Assembly: GCA_965209225.1 (NCBI GenBank)
Contig: OZ242379.1
Location: 934,762-998,761 of the forward strand
Length of the DNA stretch: 64,000 nt
Direction: 5' to 3'
Source: Thermodesulfobacteriota bacterium
GTDB taxonomy: Bacteria; Desulfobacterota_D; UBA1144; Nemesobacterales; Nemesobacteraceae
The notes beneath the pieces were generated by a model. It was not told the DNA's origin and did not search any database. It worked only from the letters and a program-made list of their open reading frames with translations. Both the position numbers and the translations under genes were made by a program. Positions 10,221 through 26,557 of this stretch are shown one piece after another; the stretch's first letter is position 1; each line of letters opens with the position of its first letter.

Positions 10221-11237
10221 TTGCGGATGAGAACGGATCAATTCGACTACGATCTTCCAAGCCGGCTGATCGCCCAGTATCCGCTTGCTGATCGCAGTTC
10301 CTCAAAACTCCTTGTGGTTGACAGGAAAACCCAGGGGTTCTCCCACGCCAGATTCTCTGATCTGAGGGATCTGCTCCGCCCGGGCGACCTCATGGTTCTT
10401 AACAACACCCGGGTTATTCCCGCGAGGCTTTCGGGACACGTGGAACGAAGGGGAGTCATCGAGTTTCTCCTTACGGAGAAAAAGGATGAGACCCGGTGGA
10501 GCGTGCTTTTCAGGAATCCGGCCGAGGGTCTCAGGGTTTTCCTTGACGGAGGGGTCTCAGGTGTCCTTCGGAAGGAACCTGACAAAAGCTGGGCGATAAG
10601 ATTCAGTGAACCCGTCGAGCGGGTAATCAGCAGCGCGGGACGGATGCCGCTTCCGCCCTACATATCAAGAGAACCCGAGCCTTCGGATAAAAAGACCTAT
10701 CAGACCGTTTACGCGACCGAGGAGGGAGCGGTCGCCGCTCCGACGGCCGGGCTTCATTTCGACCCTGAACTTATCTCGGACCTTTGCGAAAAGGGCGTTA
10801 CGATGAAATATGTCACTCTGCATGTGGGAGAGGGAACTTTCAGGCCTGTAAAGGATGAGCTTATCGATAACCACGCAATGCATTCAGAACGCGTTTCTGT
10901 TCCACAGGAGACTGCGACGGCGATAAACGAGGCCAAGGCGGAGGGAAGAAGGATTGTTTCCGTGGGAACCACGGTTACAAGAGCCCTTGAGTCGGCAGGG
11001 GGTACCACAGGGGAGATGCGGCCTTTTTCCGGAAGGACGGATCTTTTTATAAGACCTCCTTACGAATTCAGGTTTGTAGATGTTCTTATAACCAATTTCC
11101 ATATGCCCCGCTCAACTCTTCTTATGCTTGTCTCCGCGTTCTGCGGCACAAGGGAACTTGCCCTTGCCGCTTATGAGGAGGCGAAATCGCACGATTACAG
11201 ATTCCTCAGCTACGGCGACTCGATGATGATAGTGTGA
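10221..11237 (+). CDS. queA: S-adenosylmethionine:tRNA ribosyltransferase-isomerase
   Basis: FDYDLPSRLIAQYP N-terminus and length typical of QueA. Confidence 0.95.
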   Translation: MRMRTDQFDYDLPSRLIAQYPLADRSSSKLLVVDRKTQGFSHARFSDLRDLLRPGDLMVLNNTRVIPARLSGHVERRGVIEFLLTEKKDETRWSVLFRNPAEGLRVFLDGGVSGVLRKEPDKSWAIRFSEPVERVISSAGRMPLPPYISREPEPSDKKTYQTVYATEEGAVAAPTAGLHFDPELISDLCEKGVTMKYVTLHVGEGTFRPVKDELIDNHAMHSERVSVPQETATAINEAKAEGRRIVSVGTTVTRALESAGGTTGEMRPFSGRTDLFIRPPYEFRFVDVLITNFHMPRSTLLMLVSAFCGTRELALAAYEEAKSHDYRFLSYGDSMMIV

Positions 11238-11308
11238 GGTCTTTAGCCGGGTGCGCTTTTTCCATGGAAACGCAGAGAGAGCGCGTCGGGAATCTCGTCA
11301 TGCTCAGA

Positions 11309-11635
11309 TCATCCCGGGCAGTAATAATCAGGTTGATTTTTCATTAATACTATATACAGGTTAGGGAGTATATGTTCGCAAAAATGGAGAAAGGATGAAA
11401 ACGGTAGCGACCGACCCACATGACTGGACCGCCGTTTGATGATTGTCTTGAACAGGTCCCACGCTCCCTCTATGCTGTTAATGTGAACATCATATACAAC
11501 CCACTGTTCTTCGGAATGGGTTGACAGTTTTATGGCGGGCATCTTGGTCTGCAATGCCAATATATAGGATTGAAGCTCATCCATGTAGATAGCCTCGGTT
11601 TTATCCTTTACGGCTCTTTTGATGAAGTCATGCAA
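11309..11635 (-). CDS. hypothetical protein at left edge of AT-rich defense islet
   Basis: 108-aa ORF, no motif recognised. Confidence 0.3.
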   Translation of the reverse strand: MHDFIKRAVKDKTEAIYMDELQSYILALQTKMPAIKLSTHSEEQWVVYDVHINSIEGAWDLFKTIIKRRSSHVGRSLPFSSFLHFCEHILPNLYIVLMKNQPDYYCPG

Positions 11636-11764
11636 AGTCTTTTCTTGACGTTCGGAATCTTGATACGGACTTTCCCTCGTTTGGTAGCACCCGCAAACCG
11701 AGCCTTATTGTCCTTATAAGCACAGTTCTTGCCCTATATAATGAAACTTTTTATTCTTAGCGAT

Positions 11765-12232
11765 TTACGATTTGTCTGATGATAGCGCTAACGTTATTTC
11801 TTTTAATACCTGTTTACGATTTTTCTTGATTTCATGTTCCCAAAACCGGAGAACTGTCCATCCGTTTCGTTTTAGATAAGCTGTGTTTCTTCTGTCTCGC
11901 TTGCGGTTGTTTTCTATTTTTTCCCTCCAGAAGTCATTTTTCAGCAAATGCTTCCATTTGGGATAATACCAACCATGCCAAAAATCGCTGTCTAAAAATA
12001 CGCAAACTTTATACTTTTGGAAAACTATGTCTGGTCTACCTCTAATTGAAATGACATTTGTCTGGAATTTCTTTCTCGTGATTTTTTTTAGTGCGTGCAC
12101 AATTTCTTGTTCAAATTTCGTTTCTTTTGAGCGAATCTTTGCCATTAATTCTGAGCGCTTTTCCGTTGAAAGCGAGTCATTGCTTCGTTCTTTTTTGAAG
12201 TTGCGATTCAAATAATTTTTTGTTCTTTTCAT
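11765..12232 (-). CDS. vsr: very short patch repair endonuclease
   Basis: RSELMAKIRSKETKFE, RGRPDIVF, VFLDSDFWHG and WEHE motifs of Vsr. Confidence 0.9.
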   Translation of the reverse strand: MKRTKNYLNRNFKKERSNDSLSTEKRSELMAKIRSKETKFEQEIVHALKKITRKKFQTNVISIRGRPDIVFQKYKVCVFLDSDFWHGWYYPKWKHLLKNDFWREKIENNRKRDRRNTAYLKRNGWTVLRFWEHEIKKNRKQVLKEITLALSSDKS

Positions 12233-13260
12233 GAAGTTCCAGAATCAAAGATATCCGAAGCTTTAACACCGTGTTTTGAGAAATTAAAATTCTCATCTAA
12301 CAACTTCTTCCACTGGTTTAGACGATTTTTTTTGGCGTTTTGTCGCCAATAATGATTTAGTTTTTCTTTGTCCATTGTTTTTATCTCACATCTGATCATA
12401 TTAGCTTTGGAGTGGAGATTATAGGCGATTCGCGGAACCAAGACGGATTTTTCTTTGATTGTTAGTTTTTTTCTTCCTCCTGCAGTGAACAAGTCTCTCA
12501 GGTTGGAAGCTATGACTCCATGCTCAGTCATGAGATAAGCGGAGACTCGTTGGAATTTCATCAAGCTCTCGCCAAAAATTTCTGGGAAAAGAATCATTAT
12601 CTCCGCTTTAATTTTTTCTTGTTTCTCCCTACGTAATCCTCTGTAAGGTTTAATTATGAAGTCAGAAGATTTGTCATCATTTTTGTCGATCCACCATAAT
12701 TCTTCTCCATCTTTTAGTATGCTTCTGTAGTAATCTTTTATTTTTCCTATTTTCTCATCGTCTTTTCGCAGTTTGTCGTAATCAACACCGATTTTGTCGA
12801 AAATAGATTCCCCTCTGGGTAAATTCATGTCTATACGGTAACGGGGCGAGTGAGTGACGCTCACGCCGGGTAGACATTCTTGGTATGGTCGATATCGAAC
12901 ATCCGGTGCGCCGCCAAGTTTCCCAAACATTATGTAAATTCGCTCAACATCCTCTCTGGATGATTCGAGGACACTGTTGCCGGTGGAAATCCAATGATCC
13001 TTTGAAGTCATTTTTACCTCGACGCCAAAGTATTTTTTAGCAACTATATCAGGGAAGGAGCGGGAATCTGTTTGTTGAATCTCTCCTTCGAAGCCGATTT
13101 CTTTGGCTTCTTTGCGCATTTTTTCATATACGAAGTTCTCAAAATCAATTGGTGAAATATTTTCCTCTTCAGGTAGAAAGTCGATCAGTAGTCTTCGAGT
13201 TTCTTCGAGAAGAGTTATAAATTCTTCTTCATCAAGGTCTGGGTTATTCACATAGATCAT
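12229..13260 (-). CDS. putative type II restriction endonuclease (PD-(D/E)xK), located between dcm and vsr
   Basis: FPDIVAKKYFGVEVK fits PD-x9-ExK. Its start ATG overlaps the dcm stop (ATGA coupling) when started at the internal Met (ORF track 12229-13311). Synteny M-R-V. Confidence 0.5.
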   Translation of the reverse strand: MIYVNNPDLDEEEFITLLEETRRLLIDFLPEEENISPIDFENFVYEKMRKEAKEIGFEGEIQQTDSRSFPDIVAKKYFGVEVKMTSKDHWISTGNSVLESSREDVERIYIMFGKLGGAPDVRYRPYQECLPGVSVTHSPRYRIDMNLPRGESIFDKIGVDYDKLRKDDEKIGKIKDYYRSILKDGEELWWIDKNDDKSSDFIIKPYRGLRREKQEKIKAEIMILFPEIFGESLMKFQRVSAYLMTEHGVIASNLRDLFTAGGRKKLTIKEKSVLVPRIAYNLHSKANMIRCEIKTMDKEKLNHYWRQNAKKNRLNQWKKLLDENFNFSKHGVKASDIFDSGTS

Positions 13261-14051
13261 GAATGCAGGTTCACGTTTATAAATTCTTCGATTGATGTTG
13301 CGAGATACCACGCAAGTACGGGAGGAACTGCGTTACCAATTTGCTTGTAGGCTTGCGATGTTGAAGGATAAAAAATAAAATCGTCAGGGAACGACTGTAT
13401 TCTTGCAGCTTCTCTGGCGGATAATCGCCGTTTGCCATTCCAGTGGAATTCAATGTTCCCGTGATGTTCTGTTCTCATAGTGGGACCAGGCTTATCAGGA
13501 TCTAAAATGTTATTCCCCTGTCCTTTGTTTTTTTTCGCTTTGGACCAATAATGATTAGGTAATTCTCCCTCCCTAACGGTTTCTAAATCACCAATAGCTT
13601 CCCTTAAGGTAATCCATTTGTTTTTATTTGGGGGTTTCGGGTATTCAAATGGAGGCAATTTGCTTCTCTTGGTGCCGATTATAAAAATTCGTTTTCTAGT
13701 CTGTGGGACGCCATAATCCGCTGCGATAAGTAGTTTGTAAACAACGTGATAACCTAAGTCTTCAAAATTATTGATTATGGTTTTTATCGCTTCACCGCGG
13801 TCTATAGTGAGAAGCCCTTGCACATTTTCTGCTACGAACACCAGAGGATTAGTCAACTGGACAACTTTGGCCATGCTTCTGTACAATGCACCCCGCTCGC
13901 TTTTTAAGCCTTTTCGTCTTCCAGCATGGCTAAAGTCTTGGCAGGGAAATCCCCCTAGAACAATATCTGTATTTATCTGGTGGTGATTATTGAAGGGAAA
14001 CAGACTTGGGTCTTTGCTGTTGCATATCTCCGTGATATCAGCATTTACCAA
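13257..14051 (-). CDS. dcm: DNA (cytosine-5)-methyltransferase, C-terminal part (motifs IV-X), lacks motif I because of an inversion
   Basis: GGFPCQDFSHAG (IV), ENV (VI), QTRKRIFIIG (VIII), REAARIQSFPDDF (IX), GNAVPPVLA (X); begins with TTG right at the inversion junction, stop codon immediately upstream. Confidence 0.85.
   Translation of the reverse strand: MVNADITEICNSKDPSLFPFNNHHQINTDIVLGGFPCQDFSHAGRRKGLKSERGALYRSMAKVVQLTNPLVFVAENVQGLLTIDRGEAIKTIINNFEDLGYHVVYKLLIAADYGVPQTRKRIFIIGTKRSKLPPFEYPKPPNKNKWITLREAIGDLETVREGELPNHYWSKAKKNKGQGNNILDPDKPGPTMRTEHHGNIEFHWNGKRRLSAREAARIQSFPDDFIFYPSTSQAYKQIGNAVPPVLAWYLATSIEEFINVNLHS
14036..14048. repeat. left 13-bp inverted repeat (tatcagcatttac) at inversion junction
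   Basis: Perfect reverse complement of 14298-14310. Confidence 0.85.
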
Positions 14052-14081
14052 GTATCAACAACCAAGTAAACTTACAATCAG

Positions 14082-14342
14082 TTGAAGAAAAGTACTTCTT
14101 TTGATGACACGGTTATGGAAGATAGGTTTTCTGTAGTTTCCCTTTTCACTGGTTGTGGAGGTCTTGATTTGGGGTTTGTGGGTGGTTTTACCTTTCTCGG
14201 ACAAAAATACGAAAAAAGAAGATTCAAGATCATCTGGGCCAATGACATAGACAAGTCTTCGTGTAAAACTTTTAGAAGCTATTTCAGTCACAACATAGTA
14301 AATGCTGATACTGCAAGTTTTAAATGTCCTGATCTTTCCTAA
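14082..14342 (+). CDS. dcm: N-terminal fragment of the same C5-methyltransferase (motifs I-II) encoded on the opposite strand
   Basis: SLFTGCGGLDLGF (motif I) and IIWANDIDKSSCKTF (motif II); ends ...HNIVNAD then diverges, whereas the minus-strand part starts VNADITEI. Confidence 0.8.
   Translation: MKKSTSFDDTVMEDRFSVVSLFTGCGGLDLGFVGGFTFLGQKYEKRRFKIIWANDIDKSSCKTFRSYFSHNIVNADTASFKCPDLS
14298..14310. repeat. right 13-bp inverted repeat (gtaaatgctgata) at inversion junction
   Basis: Perfect reverse complement of 14036-14048; the 249-bp segment 14049-14297 between them is inverted relative to the rest of dcm. Confidence 0.85.
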
Positions 14343-14427
14343 GGCTGCGAACAATAGAGTCTGACACCTCACGGCTTTAAACAGAACGGTTTAAGCGGAG
14401 GAAAATGGACACGGGAGCACAGAACGC

Positions 14428-15303
14428 ATGGAAAGCGAACAGATCCCCAGTTACGACGACTTGCTCTGGCCGACTCTAAAAGCACTGGAAGCAAGAGGTG
14501 GTTCTGCTTCCATTCAGGAGATTTCGGAACAGATAGCTTTTGATCTGGATTTGTCCGAATCAATTCTGAGCATTCCACACAAGCAGGGTTATCGTTCAGA
14601 GGTTGATTACCGTGCTGCGTGGGCACGTACTATGCTGAAGCGTATAGGTGCGGTTAAGAACTCTTTGCGAGGAATCTGGGCGATCACGGAAGCAGGACGA
14701 GATATCTCTACGGAAGAAGAAGTACGGAAGCGGGTTAGCAAATGGAGGCGTCAAGATACCGTCGCACGCCGTAAAGTGGGTAAGACCAAACACGGAGAAG
14801 GTGATTCTTCAACAAGTTCTTACGCTCAGACTAATGAAGATGAACAGGACTGGGTAGATGAGCTTCTTGAAAATATTCGCAGTATTAAGCCCGAGGCATT
14901 TGAACGTCTTTGTCAGCGCATTTTGCGGGAAGCGGGATTCATCAAAGTAGAAGTAACAGGCCGTTCCGGTGATGGAGGGATTGATGGTGCCGGGATACTC
15001 AGGGTCAACCTTCTTTCGTTCCATATCAGATTTCAGTGCAAGAGGTATTCTGGTTCGGTCAGCGCAAGTGAAATCCGCAATTTCAGGGGGGCTCTGGTCG
15101 GTCGTGCGGACAAAGGCCTTTTTATTACCACGGGAAGATTCACCAAGGATGCAGAACGAGAAGCTGTCAGATATGGGGCCCCTGCTATTGACTTGATCAA
15201 CGGTGTTGATTTTTGTTATTTGCTGAAGAAATTCGGTCTGGGAGTAAGGAGTGAACCTGCTGAGATCGTCAAACCTCAGCCAGAATTTTTCGAGAATTTC
15301 TGA
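14428..15303 (+). CDS. Mrr-like restriction endonuclease (Mrr_N winged helix + Mrr_cat), putative Type IV modification-dependent enzyme
   Basis: N-terminal YDDLLWPTLKAL (Mrr_N) and GRSGDGGIDGAGI...FQCKRY...GLFITTGRFT catalytic-core pattern. Confidence 0.8.
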   Translation: MESEQIPSYDDLLWPTLKALEARGGSASIQEISEQIAFDLDLSESILSIPHKQGYRSEVDYRAAWARTMLKRIGAVKNSLRGIWAITEAGRDISTEEEVRKRVSKWRRQDTVARRKVGKTKHGEGDSSTSSYAQTNEDEQDWVDELLENIRSIKPEAFERLCQRILREAGFIKVEVTGRSGDGGIDGAGILRVNLLSFHIRFQCKRYSGSVSASEIRNFRGALVGRADKGLFITTGRFTKDAEREAVRYGAPAIDLINGVDFCYLLKKFGLGVRSEPAEIVKPQPEFFENF

Positions 15304-15470
15304 TGGGCAATCCAAGTGTAGTTGCCTTAGCTCGAGTTCGTCAAATGATAAAAGGTTTTGAACTCACTGATGGTAAGCACTTTTAGCGGAACACACTTTT
15401 TCGCTTGGCACTACTGTTTTGTGAAGTTTCCTGTTTTCGGGTTTTTACATCAGGACGACTGTACTGACAA

Positions 15471-15498
15471 GTGTTCCAACCATGGTGTTCCAACCATG
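15471..15498. repeat. tandem 14-bp direct repeat (gtgttccaaccatg x2) upstream of recombinase gene
   Basis: Exact adjacent duplication; each copy is mostly palindromic around ccatgg. Confidence 0.6.
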
Positions 15499-15699
15499 TC
15501 CTTGTTAACCTACTGTATCTTGGCACCTATCCTCACCCAACTGTGCATACGCCTACGTATAGAATTTTACCTAAGCTTAAGAAGTCCCATTTTTTAAATA
15601 GCTTTTTTCTTCCGACCAACCTCCAGTATGTCTGTAGTTATAGAAGCCTTGAAAACAAATCGGATTTTCTCCATTAAAATCAAAATTAAGGAGGAAAAA

Positions 15700-16659
15700 A
15701 TGAAAGCAGAAAGAAAGGTTTTCTATAACAAGGTAGTTTCTTCTGCGTTGGCGCAGAACACCCACATAGCGTATGAAAAGGGTTGGCGGTGTTTTGAGGG
15801 TTACTGCTTTTCCCGGAATATAGATCCGTTTTCCATAACGCCGGAACAAACTGCCGATTTCATCATTGACTTGGCAACCAATCCTCGTCCTAAGAGTGGA
15901 AAAACTCTTTCGATTAGAACGGTTACCCTCTATAGGAGTGGAATAAATAAAAAATACGTCGAGGCCGAAAAAAACTCTCCGATGAATCATCCCAAGGTGA
16001 TGGCCGTGTTCAAAGGATTGGCAAGAATCAAAGGGACAGCGCCACGCCGTGTAAATGCGCTGAGAGAACATGAGGTCAAAAGAATGCTAGACCAATGTAC
16101 GGATACGCTTATCGGCAAGCGCAATGCGGCGATTCTGGCCGTCGGATTTGCTGGAGCCCTGAGACGTTCTGAAATCTGTGCGCTCACAACGAACGATGTT
16201 GAGTTCATAGAACCGCAGAACGCAAAGGACCCTTGGAAGATGTTCATTTATATACGAAAATCTAAGACCGACCAGGAAGGCAGGGGGCATAAGATTGCGA
16301 TACCGGAAGGAAGGTACGTAAAACCGATAAAGAGGCTTCAGGACTGGCTGGAAGCATCAGGAATTACGGAAGGTCCTCTTTTTCAGACGATGAAACGGGG
16401 AGGTCATATTAGGGGTTTTCCGATGCACCATTCGGATATTCCGAGACTGGTAAAACATTACGCGGCCCTTATCGGGCTGGATCCGAAACAGGTGTCAGGA
16501 CATTCACTCCGCGCGGGGTTTGTTACAAGCGCGGCCGTTCACCACGCGCGTCTTGACAAGATAATGGAAGTCACAAGACACTCAAACCCATCTACAGTGA
16601 TGAGATATATAAGGGATGTTGGCTATTTCGTGGATCATGCCGGAGAAAAGTTTTTATGA
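15700..16659 (+). CDS. site-specific tyrosine recombinase (phage integrase family)
   Basis: GHSLRAGF (HxxR) and RHSNPSTVMRYIR (catalytic Tyr) boxes; start at ATG 15700 preceded by aaggagg RBS (ORF track starts 15628). Confidence 0.85.
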   Translation: MKAERKVFYNKVVSSALAQNTHIAYEKGWRCFEGYCFSRNIDPFSITPEQTADFIIDLATNPRPKSGKTLSIRTVTLYRSGINKKYVEAEKNSPMNHPKVMAVFKGLARIKGTAPRRVNALREHEVKRMLDQCTDTLIGKRNAAILAVGFAGALRRSEICALTTNDVEFIEPQNAKDPWKMFIYIRKSKTDQEGRGHKIAIPEGRYVKPIKRLQDWLEASGITEGPLFQTMKRGGHIRGFPMHHSDIPRLVKHYAALIGLDPKQVSGHSLRAGFVTSAAVHHARLDKIMEVTRHSNPSTVMRYIRDVGYFVDHAGEKFL

Positions 16660-16832
16660 TACGACTAAACCAAGGATAACCGAGTTAGTCTTTTGACTTG
16701 AGACTTCTATTTGGTGCTTGCGAAAAGAGACCCTGAACAAGCACGTCTGTTTTTGTACATTGTCAAGATGAATTGTTATACTCTTGGGGAAAATCTTTTT
16801 CTTCAATCAATTTCCCCGGAGGAACATAGCAG

Positions 16833-17819
16833 ATGGCGACAGTAGTTACGGGAGCGACCGGATTTATAGGATCGCACATAACCAGAAAGCTGGTTGAGAG
16901 AGGAGACAGGGTCAAGGTTCTTGTCAGAAAGACGAGCAATACTAAGAACATAGATTCTCTCGATGTTGAGAAGGTCTACGGGGATGTTGGAGATCCGGAT
17001 TCCCTTAAGGCCGCTTTCTCCGGATGCGACACACTTTTCCATACGGCTGGGTTCGTGTCGTTTAAGAAATCGGACCACCAGAAAATGCTGGATATAAACG
17101 TGCGCGGTGCCGCGAACGTTCTTTCCGCCGCTATGGATGTGGGCGTATCCAAGGTTGTTTTCACAAGCAGCGTAGCCGCCATCGGGGTTGAACGGGACGG
17201 TTCCCCGGTAACCGAATCTACCCAGTACGATCTTTACTCCGAGGGAATCGGGTACATGAACTGCAAGTACCTCGCGGAAAGAGAGGCAAAAAGCTTCAGT
17301 GAAAAGGGGCTTCCGGTGGTTATAACAAATCCTTCGGTGGTTCTCGGCGCGGGGGACATCTATCTTTCAAGCTCGGGATCGGTTCTGTGGTTCTGCAAGA
17401 AAAGGTTCCCTGGTTACATGGACGGCACTTTTAACGTTGTTGATGTTGAAGACGTTGCGAACGGACATCTGCTTGCCGAGAAGAACGGAAAGCCCGGAGA
17501 GCGCTACATACTCGCAAACGAGAACGTCAATGTGCAAGGTTATTTCGCTCTTCTGGAAGAGATAACCGGCATCTCTGCTCCCAAAATCAAGATTCCCTAC
17601 GTATTCGCTTACACCACCGCGTTTCTCCTTGAGAGGGTTCTGGGACTCGGATTTCCGAATTATTCCACGCTAGACATCGATTCCATAAAGCTTTCAAGGC
17701 ATAACTGGCACGCTGACAATTCAAAGGCCGTAAGCGAACTCGGATTCACTGTGACTCCGATCGAGCAGACTATACGCAAGACCGTTGAGTGGTTCAGGGA
17801 AAACGGCTATCTGAAGTAA
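16833..17819 (+). CDS. NAD-dependent epimerase/dehydratase family protein (extended SDR)
   Basis: VTGATGFIGSHI Rossmann motif and ~330 aa length. Confidence 0.8.
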   Translation: MATVVTGATGFIGSHITRKLVERGDRVKVLVRKTSNTKNIDSLDVEKVYGDVGDPDSLKAAFSGCDTLFHTAGFVSFKKSDHQKMLDINVRGAANVLSAAMDVGVSKVVFTSSVAAIGVERDGSPVTESTQYDLYSEGIGYMNCKYLAEREAKSFSEKGLPVVITNPSVVLGAGDIYLSSSGSVLWFCKKRFPGYMDGTFNVVDVEDVANGHLLAEKNGKPGERYILANENVNVQGYFALLEEITGISAPKIKIPYVFAYTTAFLLERVLGLGFPNYSTLDIDSIKLSRHNWHADNSKAVSELGFTVTPIEQTIRKTVEWFRENGYLK

Positions 17820-22934: not shown

Positions 22935-22942
22935 AAATGTTT
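22935..22942. repeat. left target-site duplication AAATGTTT
   Basis: Identical 8-mer directly abuts both IS termini, same strand. Confidence 0.7.
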
Positions 22943-23019
22943 GGGAATTATGTATTTGACTTGACAAGACATAACACAGGATATAGAATTGTGCCTAATC
23001 CCCTGAAAGGGCGCAATTC

Positions 23020-23388
23020 ATGGACTCTTGGAAGTTTGCTTGCACTGAAACCGCTATTTTCCTCTTCGGAGTTTGGGTAAGTTCTATGTTTCCAGATTTT
23101 TCCCATTGGATTTGGCCTGTTGTAGCCTTAATGCTTTTTCTTTTTGGAATGGGAAAGTTCGACACGCCTACAAATTGGATTTTCCGAAGAGAAAAAAAAC
23201 CTGCTGATGACAATATCCATGCAGAATTAGTTGCTCTTGCGAGAAGAGTTCAGCGAGGCGAAGCTACTTTCGAGCAGGAAAAACGATATCATACAATTCT
23301 TGCACGGCATCCCCTTTATTGGCATGATAACCCTGAAGATTACGAGAAGATAATACAGAAAGCACGTTCATTGGCCAGATTTGCATAA
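23020..23388 (+). CDS. cargo: hypothetical membrane protein
   Basis: Two predicted TM helices, inside IS unit. Confidence 0.4.
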   Translation: MDSWKFACTETAIFLFGVWVSSMFPDFSHWIWPVVALMLFLFGMGKFDTPTNWIFRREKKPADDNIHAELVALARRVQRGEATFEQEKRYHTILARHPLYWHDNPEDYEKIIQKARSLARFA

Positions 23389-23607
23389 TTGTTGATATTG
23401 TTCAGTCGCTTTCTTCGTCTTCGTAAATAGTAATTTCTTCCCCTTCCGGTGGAACCCCCATCAGAACTCGGACTACATCGTCAAACTCCAACTGCGACAT
23501 GTCGGGAATCTGTGGTTCGGTTTCTTTCTTGTCTGGCATTACTGGGCACCCCTAAGCTTTTCAGAATGGGTACAGTCTACCTGATTCCGAAGATTTTTCA
23601 ACGTCAT

Positions 23608-23979
23608 CTAATGTCTCTGCTCTCCCATTATCCCTAACTGTTCTCGGATTTTTCTTTCCTGTTCACTTAACCCTTGTTTCTCCTTCTTTTTCATTCCCAA
23701 TTGCCTTCTGAACTCATCCCCGCTGTCGTCCATAGAGAGAAAAGAACCCATTTTGGAAGCAACGCTTCTTCTTGGTTTTCTTTCGGGCAACTCTATGCCA
23801 TGCTTGATGGCTATTTTCCGTAATATCTCCAGTTCTTCCTCTTGTGCCTCGGCTCTTTTTGCTTCTTGGTGGCTTGAGGCTATCTTAAAGGCTGCATTAG
23901 TCGTAGTGTTGAAAACACCGAGCACAAGCATAAAAAACATAAAAACACCACCAATCAGAATCCATATCAGAAACAACAT
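23608..23979 (-). CDS. cargo: hypothetical membrane-anchored protein
   Basis: N-terminal TM helix then charged coiled region. Confidence 0.4.
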   Translation of the reverse strand: MLFLIWILIGGVFMFFMLVLGVFNTTTNAAFKIASSHQEAKRAEAQEEELEILRKIAIKHGIELPERKPRRSVASKMGSFLSMDDSGDEFRRQLGMKKKEKQGLSEQERKIREQLGIMGEQRH

Positions 23980-23992
23980 TCTTCAAACCTCC

Positions 23993-24142
23993 TTAGTCAT
24001 TCGGGCAATGGCACTCGATTGCGTTCCCTGCTGTGTCCACGACCTTGGTTTCGCAGTTCACGGGGCAATCCTCCAAGTCGAACAGGTCGCAAGCTGCGAC
24101 GAGCAGAAAAAGCAAAACGCACAACCCCCAAACAACTTTCAT
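23993..24142 (-). CDS. cargo: small Cys-rich lipoprotein (about 49 aa; mature peptide about 31 aa with 5 Cys)
   Basis: MKVVWGLCVLLFLLVAAC lipobox signal followed by CPVNC...CHC. Confidence 0.4.
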   Translation of the reverse strand: MKVVWGLCVLLFLLVAACDLFDLEDCPVNCETKVVDTAGNAIECHCPND

Positions 24143-24155
24143 TTTCTCAAGCCCC

Positions 24156-24446
24156 CTAATCGGGTAAGACCCGGTAATCTCCGTACTCATTTATAATCAC
24201 TTCATAGGAATATGTTGAGCGATTACATTTCACCTTGAATCCTGTTTTCCCCCACAGTTTTCGCACTATCGTTACACTGTTGCATGGATAGCCAGATGCG
24301 TGAATAGTGGCAACCAGTGTACCAACATAGCTGGATAAGCCTGAACCGATATACCCATCGGGTTCTATAGTTACGGTCTTTGCGTCCCAGGAAAAGAACA
24401 CAACAGAGGCAACGAAAATGACGCTAAACAGCAGAACCTTCTTCAT
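24156..24446 (-). CDS. cargo: small secreted hypothetical protein
   Basis: N-terminal signal peptide MKKVLLFSVIFVASVVF. Confidence 0.45.
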   Translation of the reverse strand: MKKVLLFSVIFVASVVFFSWDAKTVTIEPDGYIGSGLSSYVGTLVATIHASGYPCNSVTIVRKLWGKTGFKVKCNRSTYSYEVIINEYGDYRVLPD

Positions 24447-24787
24447 GAGTCACCTCCTGTTTTCTTCAGCAGTTCCTTCATCCTGTCGAAATCTGTTACC
24501 AGCCGGGGTTCTCCAGCGAAACAGTCCTTATCGTAAGAAACCATCGTATAAGCGGACTTCTCGCCTATTGACGCAAAGACATACATGTCCTTGGTTTTCG
24601 GGTCGCATCCGATAACTTCAACCTCGTCAAAGTCACCTGCATCCTTTAACTCTTTATAGGCTTCCTCAAGGGCGACCGTCATCGCCCGGCATGAAAGGTG
24701 ACAGATTTCTTCTCCCCGTGCCTGATTGACGGCACAAGCCACCCCCATGACCCCAAACAGGGTCATAAAGACCAACAATGTTCTCAT
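24443..24787 (-). CDS. cargo: small secreted/lipoprotein hypothetical protein with 4 Cys
   Basis: Signal peptide MRTLLVFMTLFGVMGVACA; 4-bp overlap with downstream gene. Confidence 0.45.
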   Translation of the reverse strand: MRTLLVFMTLFGVMGVACAVNQARGEEICHLSCRAMTVALEEAYKELKDAGDFDEVEVIGCDPKTKDMYVFASIGEKSAYTMVSYDKDCFAGEPRLVTDFDRMKELLKKTGGDS

Positions 24788-25052
24788 AGTAATCTCCTAC
24801 GTGTTTGGGGTTAACAGAGGTGGCACGGGGTGCCTCGGCATAAATTGGTGCCGGGTCTTGTCGACACCAGATAGAATCTGAAGTTGCGTGTATTCCCCGA
24901 GACCGGGTCTTGTATTGGACGCAAACCCGGCGGAGCGGGTTCTATCCAGTGTCGACATTCTAACTATATCACACCGAGGAAGGGTAATCTATGAGAATTT
25001 CGTAATCTTGAGAAACGGGTATAATTCCCGCAAGCAAAATTAGGAGGTTGTT

Positions 25053-25298
25053 GTGACGGAAGACCTGCTTAAGGATGTAAAAGGGGATTTTGAAAACATA
25101 GAAGAGGTAGAAAAACACGACGAAAGAGGAAGCGATTTCTTGTTTGTTAAAGATGTACGCTTTAGAAAATCAAAAGACCCAGAAGGCAATACTTTGGTGA
25201 TTTTTGAATTTCAAGGTCTTACGAAGCTTAGGGCCGTAAAAATATCTGCTGAAAATCTCAAACGACTTGAGAAGCAGATTCAGATTTATCGCAGTTGA
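25053..25298 (+). CDS. cargo: hypothetical protein (GTG start, ggagg RBS)
   Basis: 81-aa ORF. Confidence 0.35.
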   Translation: MTEDLLKDVKGDFENIEEVEKHDERGSDFLFVKDVRFRKSKDPEGNTLVIFEFQGLTKLRAVKISAENLKRLEKQIQIYRS

Positions 25299-25503
25299 CG
25301 AAGATGTTTATATCCCAGCCGTTGACATTAAACCACAGTATAGAATCTCTGTAATTTCCGCTTGAAGAGAATCCTTCCTCCGCTATTTTGCCAGCCAAAT
25401 CTCGAAGTTTGACTATCGTTTCCTCAAATTCCCTGATTAACGGCCTTTCATAATCCGAATGGCTATCGGCAGTTTTTTCTACAAGTTCCGGCAATGCTTC
25501 CAT
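25258..25503 (-). CDS. cargo: hypothetical protein
   Basis: 81-aa ORF convergent with previous. Confidence 0.3.
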   Translation of the reverse strand: MEALPELVEKTADSHSDYERPLIREFEETIVKLRDLAGKIAEEGFSSSGNYRDSILWFNVNGWDINIFVNCDKSESASQVV

Positions 25504-25537
25504 TTCCCATCTTACTACTGGGGAAATGGGTAAGTTG

Positions 25538-26476
25538 TCAAGAGATAAGTTCTTTGTAAGTCAGCCTTTTCCCCACAAGTCCGTTTATCGTGGCGTTTAT
25601 CTGGTCCATGGTGTCCATGGGGCGGACATTGTTGCGGTTTGAAAACTCGTCAATGTACTTCTGAAGGTGCTTGACGCTCATCTTGTGGTAAATGCCGTAG
25701 TATCCACGCTTCAGTAATGCCCAAAAGCTTTCTACGCCGTTAGTGTGGGCTTCCCCTTTAACGTATTCTCCGACCGAGTGATGAACCGTTGCGTGTTCAT
25801 ATCCCTTTTCCTTCAGTCCCGAGTAGCTTTTGTAGTCATCGGTAAATATCACGCTTCCCTTTTCCACATGACTGAGGATGATCCAGTGAAGGGTTTGAGC
25901 ATCAGTGCTTTCCACCCGCAGAGCTCTTACCTTTTTGCTTTCCCTATCCTTGATTCCCACAACCGGAGTTTTGCCTACAGCGCCACGTCCCTTTTTGAGC
26001 TTCTTTTTCTCGTGCTTGTTCTTTTCCAGTCCTCCGAGGTAAGCCTCGTCAACCTCTACGATCCTTCCGAAAAGACGGGAAGCGTTGTTGGCCCAGCCCT
26101 GGCGGATTCTGTGAGCAAGGAACCACGCTGACCTCTGCTGTATTCCGAGATCGTTTCCGAGCTTGGTACTGGATACACCCTTTAAGGAAGTGGACATAAG
26201 GTAGATAGCCATCAACCATTTCCGGTAGGAGAGGGGGCTTTCTTCCATTAAAGTTCCGGTCTTGGCACTGAAATACTTGCGGCAGGGCTTGCACCAGTAA
26301 GGCATTTCCTTGTGGCTTGCTTCCCTGGTTTCTTCGGAACCGCAACGAGGGCAGCTCCTTCCGTCCGCCCATCTCATTTTCTCAAAATGCTTCCTGGCTT
26401 TCTCTTCCGTGTTGAAGAGTTCCATAAAGTCATAAAAACTGATTCTTTCTCTTGCTGACTTGGGTTTCTGTCCCAT
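25538..26476 (-). CDS. IS1595-family transposase (N-terminal zinc ribbon + ISXO2-like DDE domain)
   Basis: CPRCGSEET...CKPCRKYF zinc ribbon; DDE region with HTNGVESFWALLKRG. Confidence 0.9.
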   Translation of the reverse strand: MGQKPKSARERISFYDFMELFNTEEKARKHFEKMRWADGRSCPRCGSEETREASHKEMPYWCKPCRKYFSAKTGTLMEESPLSYRKWLMAIYLMSTSLKGVSSTKLGNDLGIQQRSAWFLAHRIRQGWANNASRLFGRIVEVDEAYLGGLEKNKHEKKKLKKGRGAVGKTPVVGIKDRESKKVRALRVESTDAQTLHWIILSHVEKGSVIFTDDYKSYSGLKEKGYEHATVHHSVGEYVKGEAHTNGVESFWALLKRGYYGIYHKMSVKHLQKYIDEFSNRNNVRPMDTMDQINATINGLVGKRLTYKELIS

Positions 26477-26549
26477 TGAACTGACCTCCTTAACTGTGTA
26501 AAATTCTACACGATTTAAAAAGGTTTGTCAAGTCAAATACATAATTCCC

Positions 26550-26557
26550 AAATGTTT
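26550..26557. repeat. right target-site duplication AAATGTTT
   Basis: Identical to 22935-22942; 8-bp TSD is the size expected for the IS1595 family. Confidence 0.7.

Follow-up and report, generated by a model that had tools for sequence, protein, structure and literature searches.

A putative fimS-like promoter switch inside a split dcm gene within a mobile defence cassette of Dadabacteria

Introduction

Phase-variable restriction is known mainly in two forms, the shuffling of specificity determinants in Type I and Type IIG systems and repeat slippage in Type III systems. The switch that appears to be the closest mechanistic analogue of the one described here controls fimbriae: Escherichia coli fimS is a 314-bp invertible promoter element with 9-bp inverted repeats, acted upon by the tyrosine recombinases FimB and FimE. 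The subject of this article is a defence islet in a 64,000-nucleotide stretch of the 2.28-Mb contig OZ242379.1 (referred to below, at its full length, as the window), from a Candidatus Dadabacteria bacterium, some related records being labelled Thermodesulfobacteriota. The islet holds a DNA cytosine methyltransferase gene (dcm) in two pieces, with a Type II restriction endonuclease candidate (called R here) and vsr downstream of the larger piece; across a small invertible segment lie mrr, encoding a predicted Type IV restriction enzyme, and a tyrosine recombinase gene. We consider it probable (roughly 0.6) that the islet represents a mobile defence cassette whose core is a fimS-like switch, driven by the recombinase, that alternates dcm-R-vsr with mrr, and that the window has caught it facing mrr.

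The likeness to fimS consists of a small invertible element bearing a promoter (275 bp here), very short repeats (13 bp here) and a dedicated tyrosine recombinase alongside. There are also clear differences: here one repeat lies inside coding sequence and the element carries 65 codons of its target gene, so that inversion would also break the gene; moreover, the flipped promoter would face a second functional gene, and the cargo consists of restriction enzymes rather than fimbriae. Two other switches share the principle that a single invertible promoter picks one of two mutually exclusive products, but neither involves restriction systems. In Salmonella, the serine invertase Hin acts through a repressor, and in Campylobacter fetus the sapA promoter flips between two oppositely oriented genes on a RecA-dependent element of several kb. 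Regarding gene content, Type II modules linked to Dcm and Vsr exist, for example EcoRII-Dcm-Vsr and HpaII R-M-V. As in these modules, a C5 methyltransferase, a PD-(D/E)xK nuclease and Vsr, which repairs T:G mismatches arising from deamination of 5-methylcytosine (m5C), are predicted here from one operon with overlapping stop and start codons; differently from them, the nuclease family is uncharacterised and the operon appears to be under an inversion switch.

Inversions are also found within restriction loci themselves. In Type I hsdS invertons, e.g. the pneumococcal SpnD39III/cod locus with PsrA/CreX (PMC7672463, PMC7096588), a tyrosine recombinase gene stands beside a restriction-modification locus and inversion yields subpopulations differing in methylation and restriction, as we propose here. 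However, those invertons swap specificity cassettes among hsdS copies while the system stays expressed, whereas here a whole Type IIP operon of methyltransferase, nuclease and Vsr genes (M-R-V) would be unplugged and another enzyme plugged in, either the Type IV Mrr or, in one related lineage, a methyltransferase-nuclease fusion. Gene-altering programmed inversions have been described in Type IIG, BREX PglX and DISARM DrmMI genes [Milman et al., 2023 (PMC9881135)]. These likewise occur within restriction or methyltransferase genes with a recombinase nearby, but they exchange 3′ specificity parts with a pseudogene cassette via long repeats; here the 5′ end and the promoter would flip, and there is no alternative cassette. 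Cytosine methyltransferases and Mrr both go unmentioned in that study (PMC9881135), and our full-text literature searches returned no inversion that flips a Type IIP dcm gene's promoter together with its 5′ end and none alternating with Mrr.

The dcm gene is split across a probable invertible segment

The features of the switch region are listed below by their position in the window.

13257-14036, minus strand: dcm body, codons 66-324 plus stop, with motifs IV to X (translation, PF00145)
14036-14048: left inverted-repeat core TATCAGCATTTAC, presumed crossover site, the minus strand reading V-N-A-D-(I) of Dcm
14044-14072, plus strand: candidate dcm promoter within the invertible segment, with -35 TTTACC (14044-14049), a 17-nt spacer and -10 TAAACT (14067-14072)
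14049-14297: interior of the invertible segment, 249 bp (275 bp including both cores, 14036-14310)
14115-14342, plus strand: open reading frame (ORF) of the dcm 5′ fragment, codons 1-65 (motif I FTGCGG), then 10 unrelated codons and a stop
14298-14310: right inverted-repeat core GTAAATGCTGATA, the reverse complement of TATCAGCATTTAC
14311-14427, plus strand: mrr leader, 117 nt, in which no terminator or promoter-like site was detected

An earlier note on this DNA had described a classic M-R-V module made of dcm, an ATGA-coupled ORF and vsr. The genes and their overlaps are indeed present, but dcm is not intact. The plus strand encodes motif I (within 14115-14309) and the minus strand motifs IV-X (within 13257-14036), so that no single polypeptide of the unflipped sequence carries motifs I, IV, VI, VIII and X together. 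In its present orientation the dcm body has neither motif I nor any promoter, while the plus-strand ORF with the Dcm N-terminus starts at 14082 or 14115 and ends at 14342, codons 1-65 occupying 14115-14309. The two pieces are separated by an inversion with a perfect 13-bp inverted repeat at its ends, the core of which occurs in only two copies in the 64-kb window, even when 2 mismatches are allowed. A multi-site shufflon was considered and rejected, the core having no further copies in the window.

Flipping 14036-14310 in silico produces one in-frame Dcm of 324 amino acids that reads ...HNIVNAD|ITEIC... across the junction, matches PF00145 with E=1.7e-74 and unites the motifs FTGCGG, GFPCQ, ENV, QTRKR and GNAVPP in one protein. 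In what we call orientation A (dcm restored, as opposed to orientation B of the window), the computed junction of the restored dcm is ...CACAACATA-GTAAATGCTGATA-TCACGGAG..., and that in which the promoter end meets the mrr leader is ...TTGATACTTG-GTAAATGCTGATA-CTGCAAG.... Related sequences place the breakpoints at the same positions. Intact dcm-R-vsr modules (L005-7, L012 and L013, the last disrupted by insertion sequences) share ~80% nucleotide identity with the window, yet align with it in two blocks of opposite orientation, the boundaries of which fall exactly at 14048 and 14310; homology between the window and the related locus L014 stops at 14311, at the outer edge of the right core. Since dcm is split in the present orientation, the M-R-V module is presumably off in the window.

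The split cassette is conserved and under selection in three lineages

The same gene order, i.e. recombinase, partner nuclease, inverted 5′ segment, dcm body, R and vsr, occurs in three lineages and at three chromosomal sites, and the recombinase is present each time. Two further loci (L008 and L009) are 96-97% identical to the window and occupy the same site between queA and an epimerase gene. The split cassettes of the other lineages share 80-85% nucleotide identity with the window: L002 and L003 (80%) lie between a Na+/H+ exchanger/ATP-synthase cluster and DUF6338 genes, and L014 (85%) adjoins parDE and a pyruvate kinase gene. In the metagenome-assembled genome (MAG) that carries L002, its own queA site (L026) is empty and the cassette stands elsewhere in the genome. 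Note that this MAG (GCA_964429945.1) bears the label 'uncultured Spirochaetia bacterium', probably in error, because the products of its argG, queA, epimerase and aroC genes share 85-97% identity with their Dadabacteria counterparts.

The repeat arms have changed in step. In L002, both arms read TATCCGCATTTAC, i.e. the identical A-to-C change is found in each, and in L014 one arm is TATCCGCATTTAC while the other is partly degraded (11/13 positions kept). All reading frames are intact in the three lineages, and the ratios of nonsynonymous to synonymous substitution rates (dN/dS), calculated pairwise among the three split-cassette lineages at dS ~0.6-1.15 save for recombinase exceptions, are low: 0.08-0.11 for the 65-codon dcm fragment, 0.07-0.08 for the dcm body, 0.10-0.11 for R and 0.06 for vsr. 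The value for mrr, which L014 does not have, is 0.20. For the recombinase, values are 0.07-0.08, with dS saturated for the window versus L002 or L014; the L002-L014 pair (dN/dS 0.080 at dS 0.78) is the sole recombinase comparison within the above range. Both dcm pieces, R and vsr thus appear to be under purifying selection and, because of the low dN/dS and the intact frames, dcm has presumably not been dead since the common ancestor of these lineages. The split form is a cassette that is conserved, selected and mobile.

Fixed dcm-R-vsr modules, in which dcm is intact, have no adjoining recombinase or mrr. A decayed copy of the module stands beside uvrB in L013 (7001-12154), where dcm and R are broken by two insertion sequence (IS) elements with DDE_3 and rve transposases; such modules are thus also lost by IS insertion.

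A candidate promoter within the segment and the leader of the partner gene

The -35 hexamer TTTACC of the candidate promoter overlaps the repeat core, and in the present orientation this promoter faces mrr; the second repeat arm lies within dcm codons 62-66. At 3 invertible and 3 fixed loci, a TTTACC-N17-TA(A/G)A(C/T)T motif precedes the dcm ATG (L012 reads ATTACC at -35); its distance from the ATG hardly varies and its spacer sequence is variable, and from this conservation we infer that 14044-14072 is the dcm promoter. It matches the consensus at 8/12 positions and hence was not reported by our sigma-70 scan, which with its threshold of 9/12 was negative for both the switch and the mrr leader. 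The invertible segment would then hold the sole recognisable promoter of the dcm-R-vsr operon. As the fixed loci carry GCGTTTACC or GCATTTACC at the place equivalent to the core and -35 region, the switch seems to have originated because codons 62-66 (GTAAATGC) happened to be complementary to the -35 region, a match that later grew to 13 bp.

Whether the partner gene depends on the flipped segment can best be judged in L014. There, mrr is replaced by a gene encoding a 536-amino-acid fusion of an N6_N4 methyltransferase domain (E=2e-41) with Mrr_cat (E=1.6e-5, above the Pfam cut-off). Its ATG lies 15 nt past the repeat, and the sole element in between is a Shine-Dalgarno sequence (AAGGA); the start of the partner gene also overlaps, as ATGA (AGATGATGG), the stop with which the dcm-fragment ORF ends. 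Because a 15-nt gap leaves no room for a promoter, this partner would be transcribed only through the flipped segment, and at least in L014 the partner gene therefore looks dependent on it. In the window, mrr would likewise be read from the flipped promoter. The earlier note had proposed that co-residence of an m5C methyltransferase and an Mrr enzyme implies either non-overlapping specificities or regulated alternation; the anatomy favours the latter, with the dcm promoter candidate inside an invertible segment and facing mrr.

The mrr leader is 117 nt long in the window and 106 nt in L002, and its predicted RNA folding was not significant (z = -1.25). One block of it, 14374-14401 (L002 6871-6898), reads GGCTTTAA(A/G)CAGAACGGTTTAA(G/A)CGGAG and has been kept between the two lineages, the leader being otherwise diverged. 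This block could form a 7-bp AU-rich hairpin, the pairing of which is preserved by the two differences between the lineages, and a 24-codon upstream ORF begins at 14406, directly after GGAGG.

The adjacent tyrosine recombinase

One further gene of the islet bears directly on the switch.

15700-16659, plus strand: tyrosine recombinase, 319 amino acids (343 if the upstream ATG at 15628 is used), PF00589 E=8e-16

The catalytic residues R (ALRRSE), HxxR (GHSLRAG), H (TRHSN) and Y (MRYIRD) are invariant in the recombinase alignment A2, and the protein has distant full-length similarity to Cre and XerD, aligning with Cre over residues 30-307. Its domain and catalytic residues thus identify it as a predicted tyrosine site-specific recombinase. 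The gene is located 1.4 kb from the segment flanked by the 13-bp inverted repeats, an arrangement typical of invertons. The family is large (1,579 matches at E<=1e-40); a scan of JGI metagenomes with the recombinase alignment yielded one distant locus only (31% identity), which was uninformative.

Close homologues are found in other company. At the queA/epimerase site of L053, an 87%-identical recombinase adjoins a PLD-SNF2 helicase gene and a Type IIG (Eco57I/MmeI-like) gene, and a 155-nt inverted repeat (80%; 4942-5096 and 6789-6943) links the TaqI_C specificity region of the 1,141-amino-acid Type IIG enzyme to a downstream TaqI_C fragment on the reverse strand. This locus belongs to the class 'Cj0031 homologue with an upstream PLD-SNF2 gene' (PMC9881135) and, judging from its organization, would be a specificity-domain inverton of the kind described by Milman et al. 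In L054, another 87%-identical recombinase lies ~800 nt from a perfect 15-nt inverted repeat (AGGATCTCGCTATCA) at 5873-5887 and 6176-6190; it flanks 288 nt in the 3′ part of a 1,522-amino-acid DEAD/ResIII helicase gene, which may be another intragenic inverton.

The earlier note had seen an integrase-type recombinase at the islet edge. A tyrosine recombinase is indeed present, but because its close homologues adjoin other invertible restriction genes and the fixed dcm modules lack a recombinase, it is probably an invertase, a role at least as likely as that of an integrase, and would catalyze the inversion of the segment. It may serve integration as well, since its gene lies at the islet edge.

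Orientation of the segment in available assemblies

The mrr-facing orientation is found in the window and in L002, L003, L008, L009 and L014, that is, in all six contigs that span the switch. Searches with Dcm returned either truncated forms (264-279 amino acids) or intact proteins of <=80% identity, and those of the latter that were checked belong to the fixed module (L012).

The ends of other contigs bear on the question of whether inversion is ongoing. Logan contigs derive from a de Bruijn graph with k=31, where no 31-mer occurs twice (PMC12424806). Two contigs of SRR16090826 start at the switch: the 13-nt core exactly opens L056, with the mrr leader after it, and L004 opens with a 30-mer (k-1) made up of 17 nt from the promoter end of the segment and the core. 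L010, of the window lineage (SRR10996926), begins at the same 17-nt offset. A repeat of 13 bp is too short to fork a k=31 graph when the population is clonal; ends at these positions are those expected if reads of the orientation-A junction between promoter end and mrr leader coexist with a majority in orientation B. The populations sampled would then hold both orientations, and the inversion would be ongoing. In the sister sample SRR16090827 a contig passes straight through the switch, and the long-read contig L001 ends 11 nt from the core.

Proposed mechanism and alternative explanations

In the mechanism that we propose, the adjacent tyrosine recombinase would perform the crossover within the identical 13-bp cores. 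In orientation A, the promoter and the first 65 codons would join the dcm body, and Dcm (the m5C methyltransferase), the translationally coupled Type II nuclease and Vsr would be made. In orientation B, that of the window, dcm is split and would be promoterless, R and vsr would also lose their promoter, and the flipped promoter would read through the 75-codon fragment ORF into the divergent mrr. As viable cells with a split dcm evidently exist, orientation B must leave R silent, which fits a single promoter for the whole dcm-R-vsr operon. The outcome would be a mixed population of cells that methylate their own DNA and cut unmethylated DNA and cells that do not methylate and cut modified DNA.

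Several points weigh against this mechanism. The orientation with intact dcm occurs in none of the six spanning contigs, no full-length Dcm of >=90% identity was found among 5.8 billion proteins, and the argument from contig ends is indirect. The candidate promoter agrees with the consensus at just 8/12 positions, below the scan threshold, and promoters of Dadabacteria are uncharacterised. The 117-nt leader of the window is roomy enough for a promoter of its own, so that mrr need not depend on the switch. The recombinase could be an integrase only, given its position at the islet edge and the close homologues at the same site with other cargo. Finally, the transition itself is a problem in both directions: a change from A to B would confront Mrr with a chromosome that still bears fresh m5C methylation, so that either Mrr ignores this pattern or switching is costly, and a change towards dcm would bring R into contact with an unmethylated chromosome, which implies either non-overlapping specificities or, again, a cost.

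One of these difficulties would disappear if the segment were a plain on/off phase switch of dcm-R-vsr, with mrr constitutive from its own promoter, nucleases of non-overlapping specificity and no alternation, since Mrr would then not meet a methylated chromosome after switching. The mrr leaders of the window and L002 (106-117 nt) offer room for such a promoter, and their part GGCTTTAA.CAGAACGGTTTAA.CGGAG is conserved between the lineages. We nevertheless hold this reading to be rather unlikely: no promoter-like site was detected in the mrr leader, the L014 partner with its 15-nt gap and coupled start would depend on the flipped segment, and the partner is invariably a restriction-type gene placed head-to-head with the switch.

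The alternation of dcm-R-vsr with mrr has also to be weighed against a history without any switch, in which a one-off, fixed inversion killed the methyltransferase of a decaying restriction-modification module and the recombinase only integrates the islet at the queA/epimerase hotspot. The identical split orientation of every spanning assembly, with the intact form not found, would agree with this, as would the 87%-identical recombinases that accompany unrelated cargo at the same site and the IS-disrupted copy of the module elsewhere (L013). However, dN/dS values of 0.07-0.11 for the dcm pieces and R and of 0.06 for vsr, together with intact frames in three lineages, led us to reject pseudogene decay; the repeat cores co-vary, contigs end exactly where mixed orientations predict, and the islet ends carry no att direct repeats, all of which makes a fixed inversion improbable. 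An artefact of assembly at the short inverted repeat deserves still less credit. Assemblers can be misled by inverted repeats, but the 13-bp repeat is shorter than any assembly k-mer used, and the same structure recurs in at least six independent assemblies that differ in methods and samples (a 2.28-Mb contig, NCBI MAGs, ENA scaffolds and Logan contigs); this explanation was rejected.

The islet, its other genes and its insertion site

The defence islet extends from ~11255 to 16745 (about 5.49 kb), between queA (10221-11237) and the epimerase gene (16833-17819). Besides the switch region and the recombinase, it comprises the following features.

11309-11635, minus strand: C-terminal fragment of an IS1595-family transposase, a relic (NCBIfam NF033547 E=2.9e-6, below cut-off, profile positions 125-197 of 215)
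11765-12232, minus strand: vsr, predicted very-short-patch T:G mismatch endonuclease, last gene of the operon (PF03852, TIGR00632, PADLOC Vsr)
12229-13260, minus strand: R, Type II restriction endonuclease candidate, 343 amino acids, EcoRV-like PD-(D/E)xK, its start overlapping the dcm stop (ATGA)
14428-15303, plus strand: mrr, predicted Type IV modification-dependent restriction enzyme (Mrr_N winged helix plus Mrr_cat)

ATGA stop/start overlaps occur at both the dcm/R and the R/vsr junctions. The vsr product scores above the curated cut-offs with PF03852 (E=4e-17, 62.3 bits, cut-off 27) and TIGR00632 (106.3 bits, cut-off 97.85), which identifies it as a predicted Vsr. The R product was identified through PADLOC and fold comparison alone: it matches the PADLOC Type II restriction endonuclease model PDLC03508 over its full length (E=1.6e-44) and has a restriction-nuclease fold with a PD...ExK motif, while Pfam, NCBIfam and PDB sequence searches returned nothing. 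Its family, for which there is no Pfam model, comprises 1198 homologues, every one named hypothetical, and tblastn against plasmids retrieved homologues of 30-40% identity, one of them annotated 'restriction endonuclease' and none a named enzyme. We thus regard R as a Type II restriction nuclease candidate of the PD-(D/E)xK type, in line with the suggestion made for this ORF in the earlier note, which absence of a nuclease fold would have contradicted. That note had also predicted both domains of Mrr, and these were found: Mrr_N (PF14338) with E=2.6e-18 over residues 9-93 and Mrr_cat (PF04471) with E=2.4e-28 over all 115 profile positions, in addition to PADLOC mREase_IV with E=7.5e-28. Mrr is therefore a predicted Type IV enzyme that would cut modified DNA. 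Exact-protein look-ups of the window Mrr and R gave no record, and for this reason their relatives were used instead. Note also that the poorly conserved 396-nt spacer between mrr and the recombinase gene contains a perfect tandem duplication of GTGTTCCAACCATG (15471-15498), which the terminator scan flagged as a hairpin too.

The islet differs from its surroundings in composition, as had been noticed earlier: its GC content is 0.426 (11255-16745) versus 0.507 for the remaining window, and the GC content at third codon positions is 0.37-0.48 for its genes versus 0.58-0.67 for argG, queA, the epimerase gene and aroC. A QueA scan with one genome per species yielded 26 Dadabacteria loci, and in 24 of them the epimerase gene follows 100-215 nt past queA, with argG upstream and aroC downstream, and the islet genes are absent from the queA site. 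The expectation that the islet is not syntenic in relatives thus held. In blastn comparisons of the window with the empty-site genomes L016, L017, L031 and L041, homology stops at 11237-11255 and restarts at 16745-16748. The islet is a real insertion, missing at the same site in relatives and of deviant composition. The att-like direct repeats that had been anticipated at its ends did not materialize, no direct repeat of >=7 nt being common to 11226-11330 and 16661-16800.

The queA/epimerase spot is a recurrent integration hotspot. L053 and L054 hold unrelated defence cargo there, beside the recombinases 87% identical to that of the window. A different insert of 1.4 kb occupies the spot in L021 (11011-12425), and L036 has a larger insertion (10001-14340) with a duplicated queA 3′ end (85 amino acids, 86% identity) ~3 kb downstream of queA and short pieces in common with window positions 11366-11454.

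The stretch with the IS1595 relic (Pfam DDE_Tnp_IS1595 E=0.014) differs between the window and L008/L009. Elsewhere in the window, a pair of 56-nt inverted repeats (77% complementary) at 22935-22990 and 26502-26557, 3.5 kb apart, encloses a low-GC interior (0.43-0.49) with an intact IS1595-family transposase gene (25538-26476, minus strand; DDE_Tnp_IS1595 E=1.7e-43) and several small ORFs without a Pfam match. In appearance this element (22935-26557) is an IS that carries passenger genes; identity between its transposase and the relic of the islet is just 30%.

Significance

A Type IIP methylase/nuclease/Vsr operon controlled by the flipping of a promoter together with 5′ coding sequence would be a design different from the known modes of phase-variable restriction, the more so if the flip feeds a modification-dependent nuclease. 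The proposed switch gives a concrete answer to how one cell can hold both an m5C methyltransferase and an Mrr enzyme, and it raises the question of how cells survive while a Type II system turns on and off. It would also illustrate how a switch may originate from native sequence, starting from a chance match between a -35 region and codons 62-66 that was extended to 13 bp.

For the population, the switch suggests bet-hedging against phages that escape restriction through host methylation. A bolder idea, which we put forward only tentatively, is that one invertible promoter acts as a true toggle between opposite immune logics, i.e. Dcm-R-Vsr, which would methylate the chromosome and cut unmethylated DNA, and Mrr, or another enzyme as in L014, which would act in unmethylated cells and cut modified DNA. 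Phage progeny that bear the epigenetic imprint of one subpopulation would then face cleavage in the other, giving a population-level immunity that methylation escape would not defeat, and the cassette would be a portable unit of a switch plus two restriction modules, moving among chromosomal sites.

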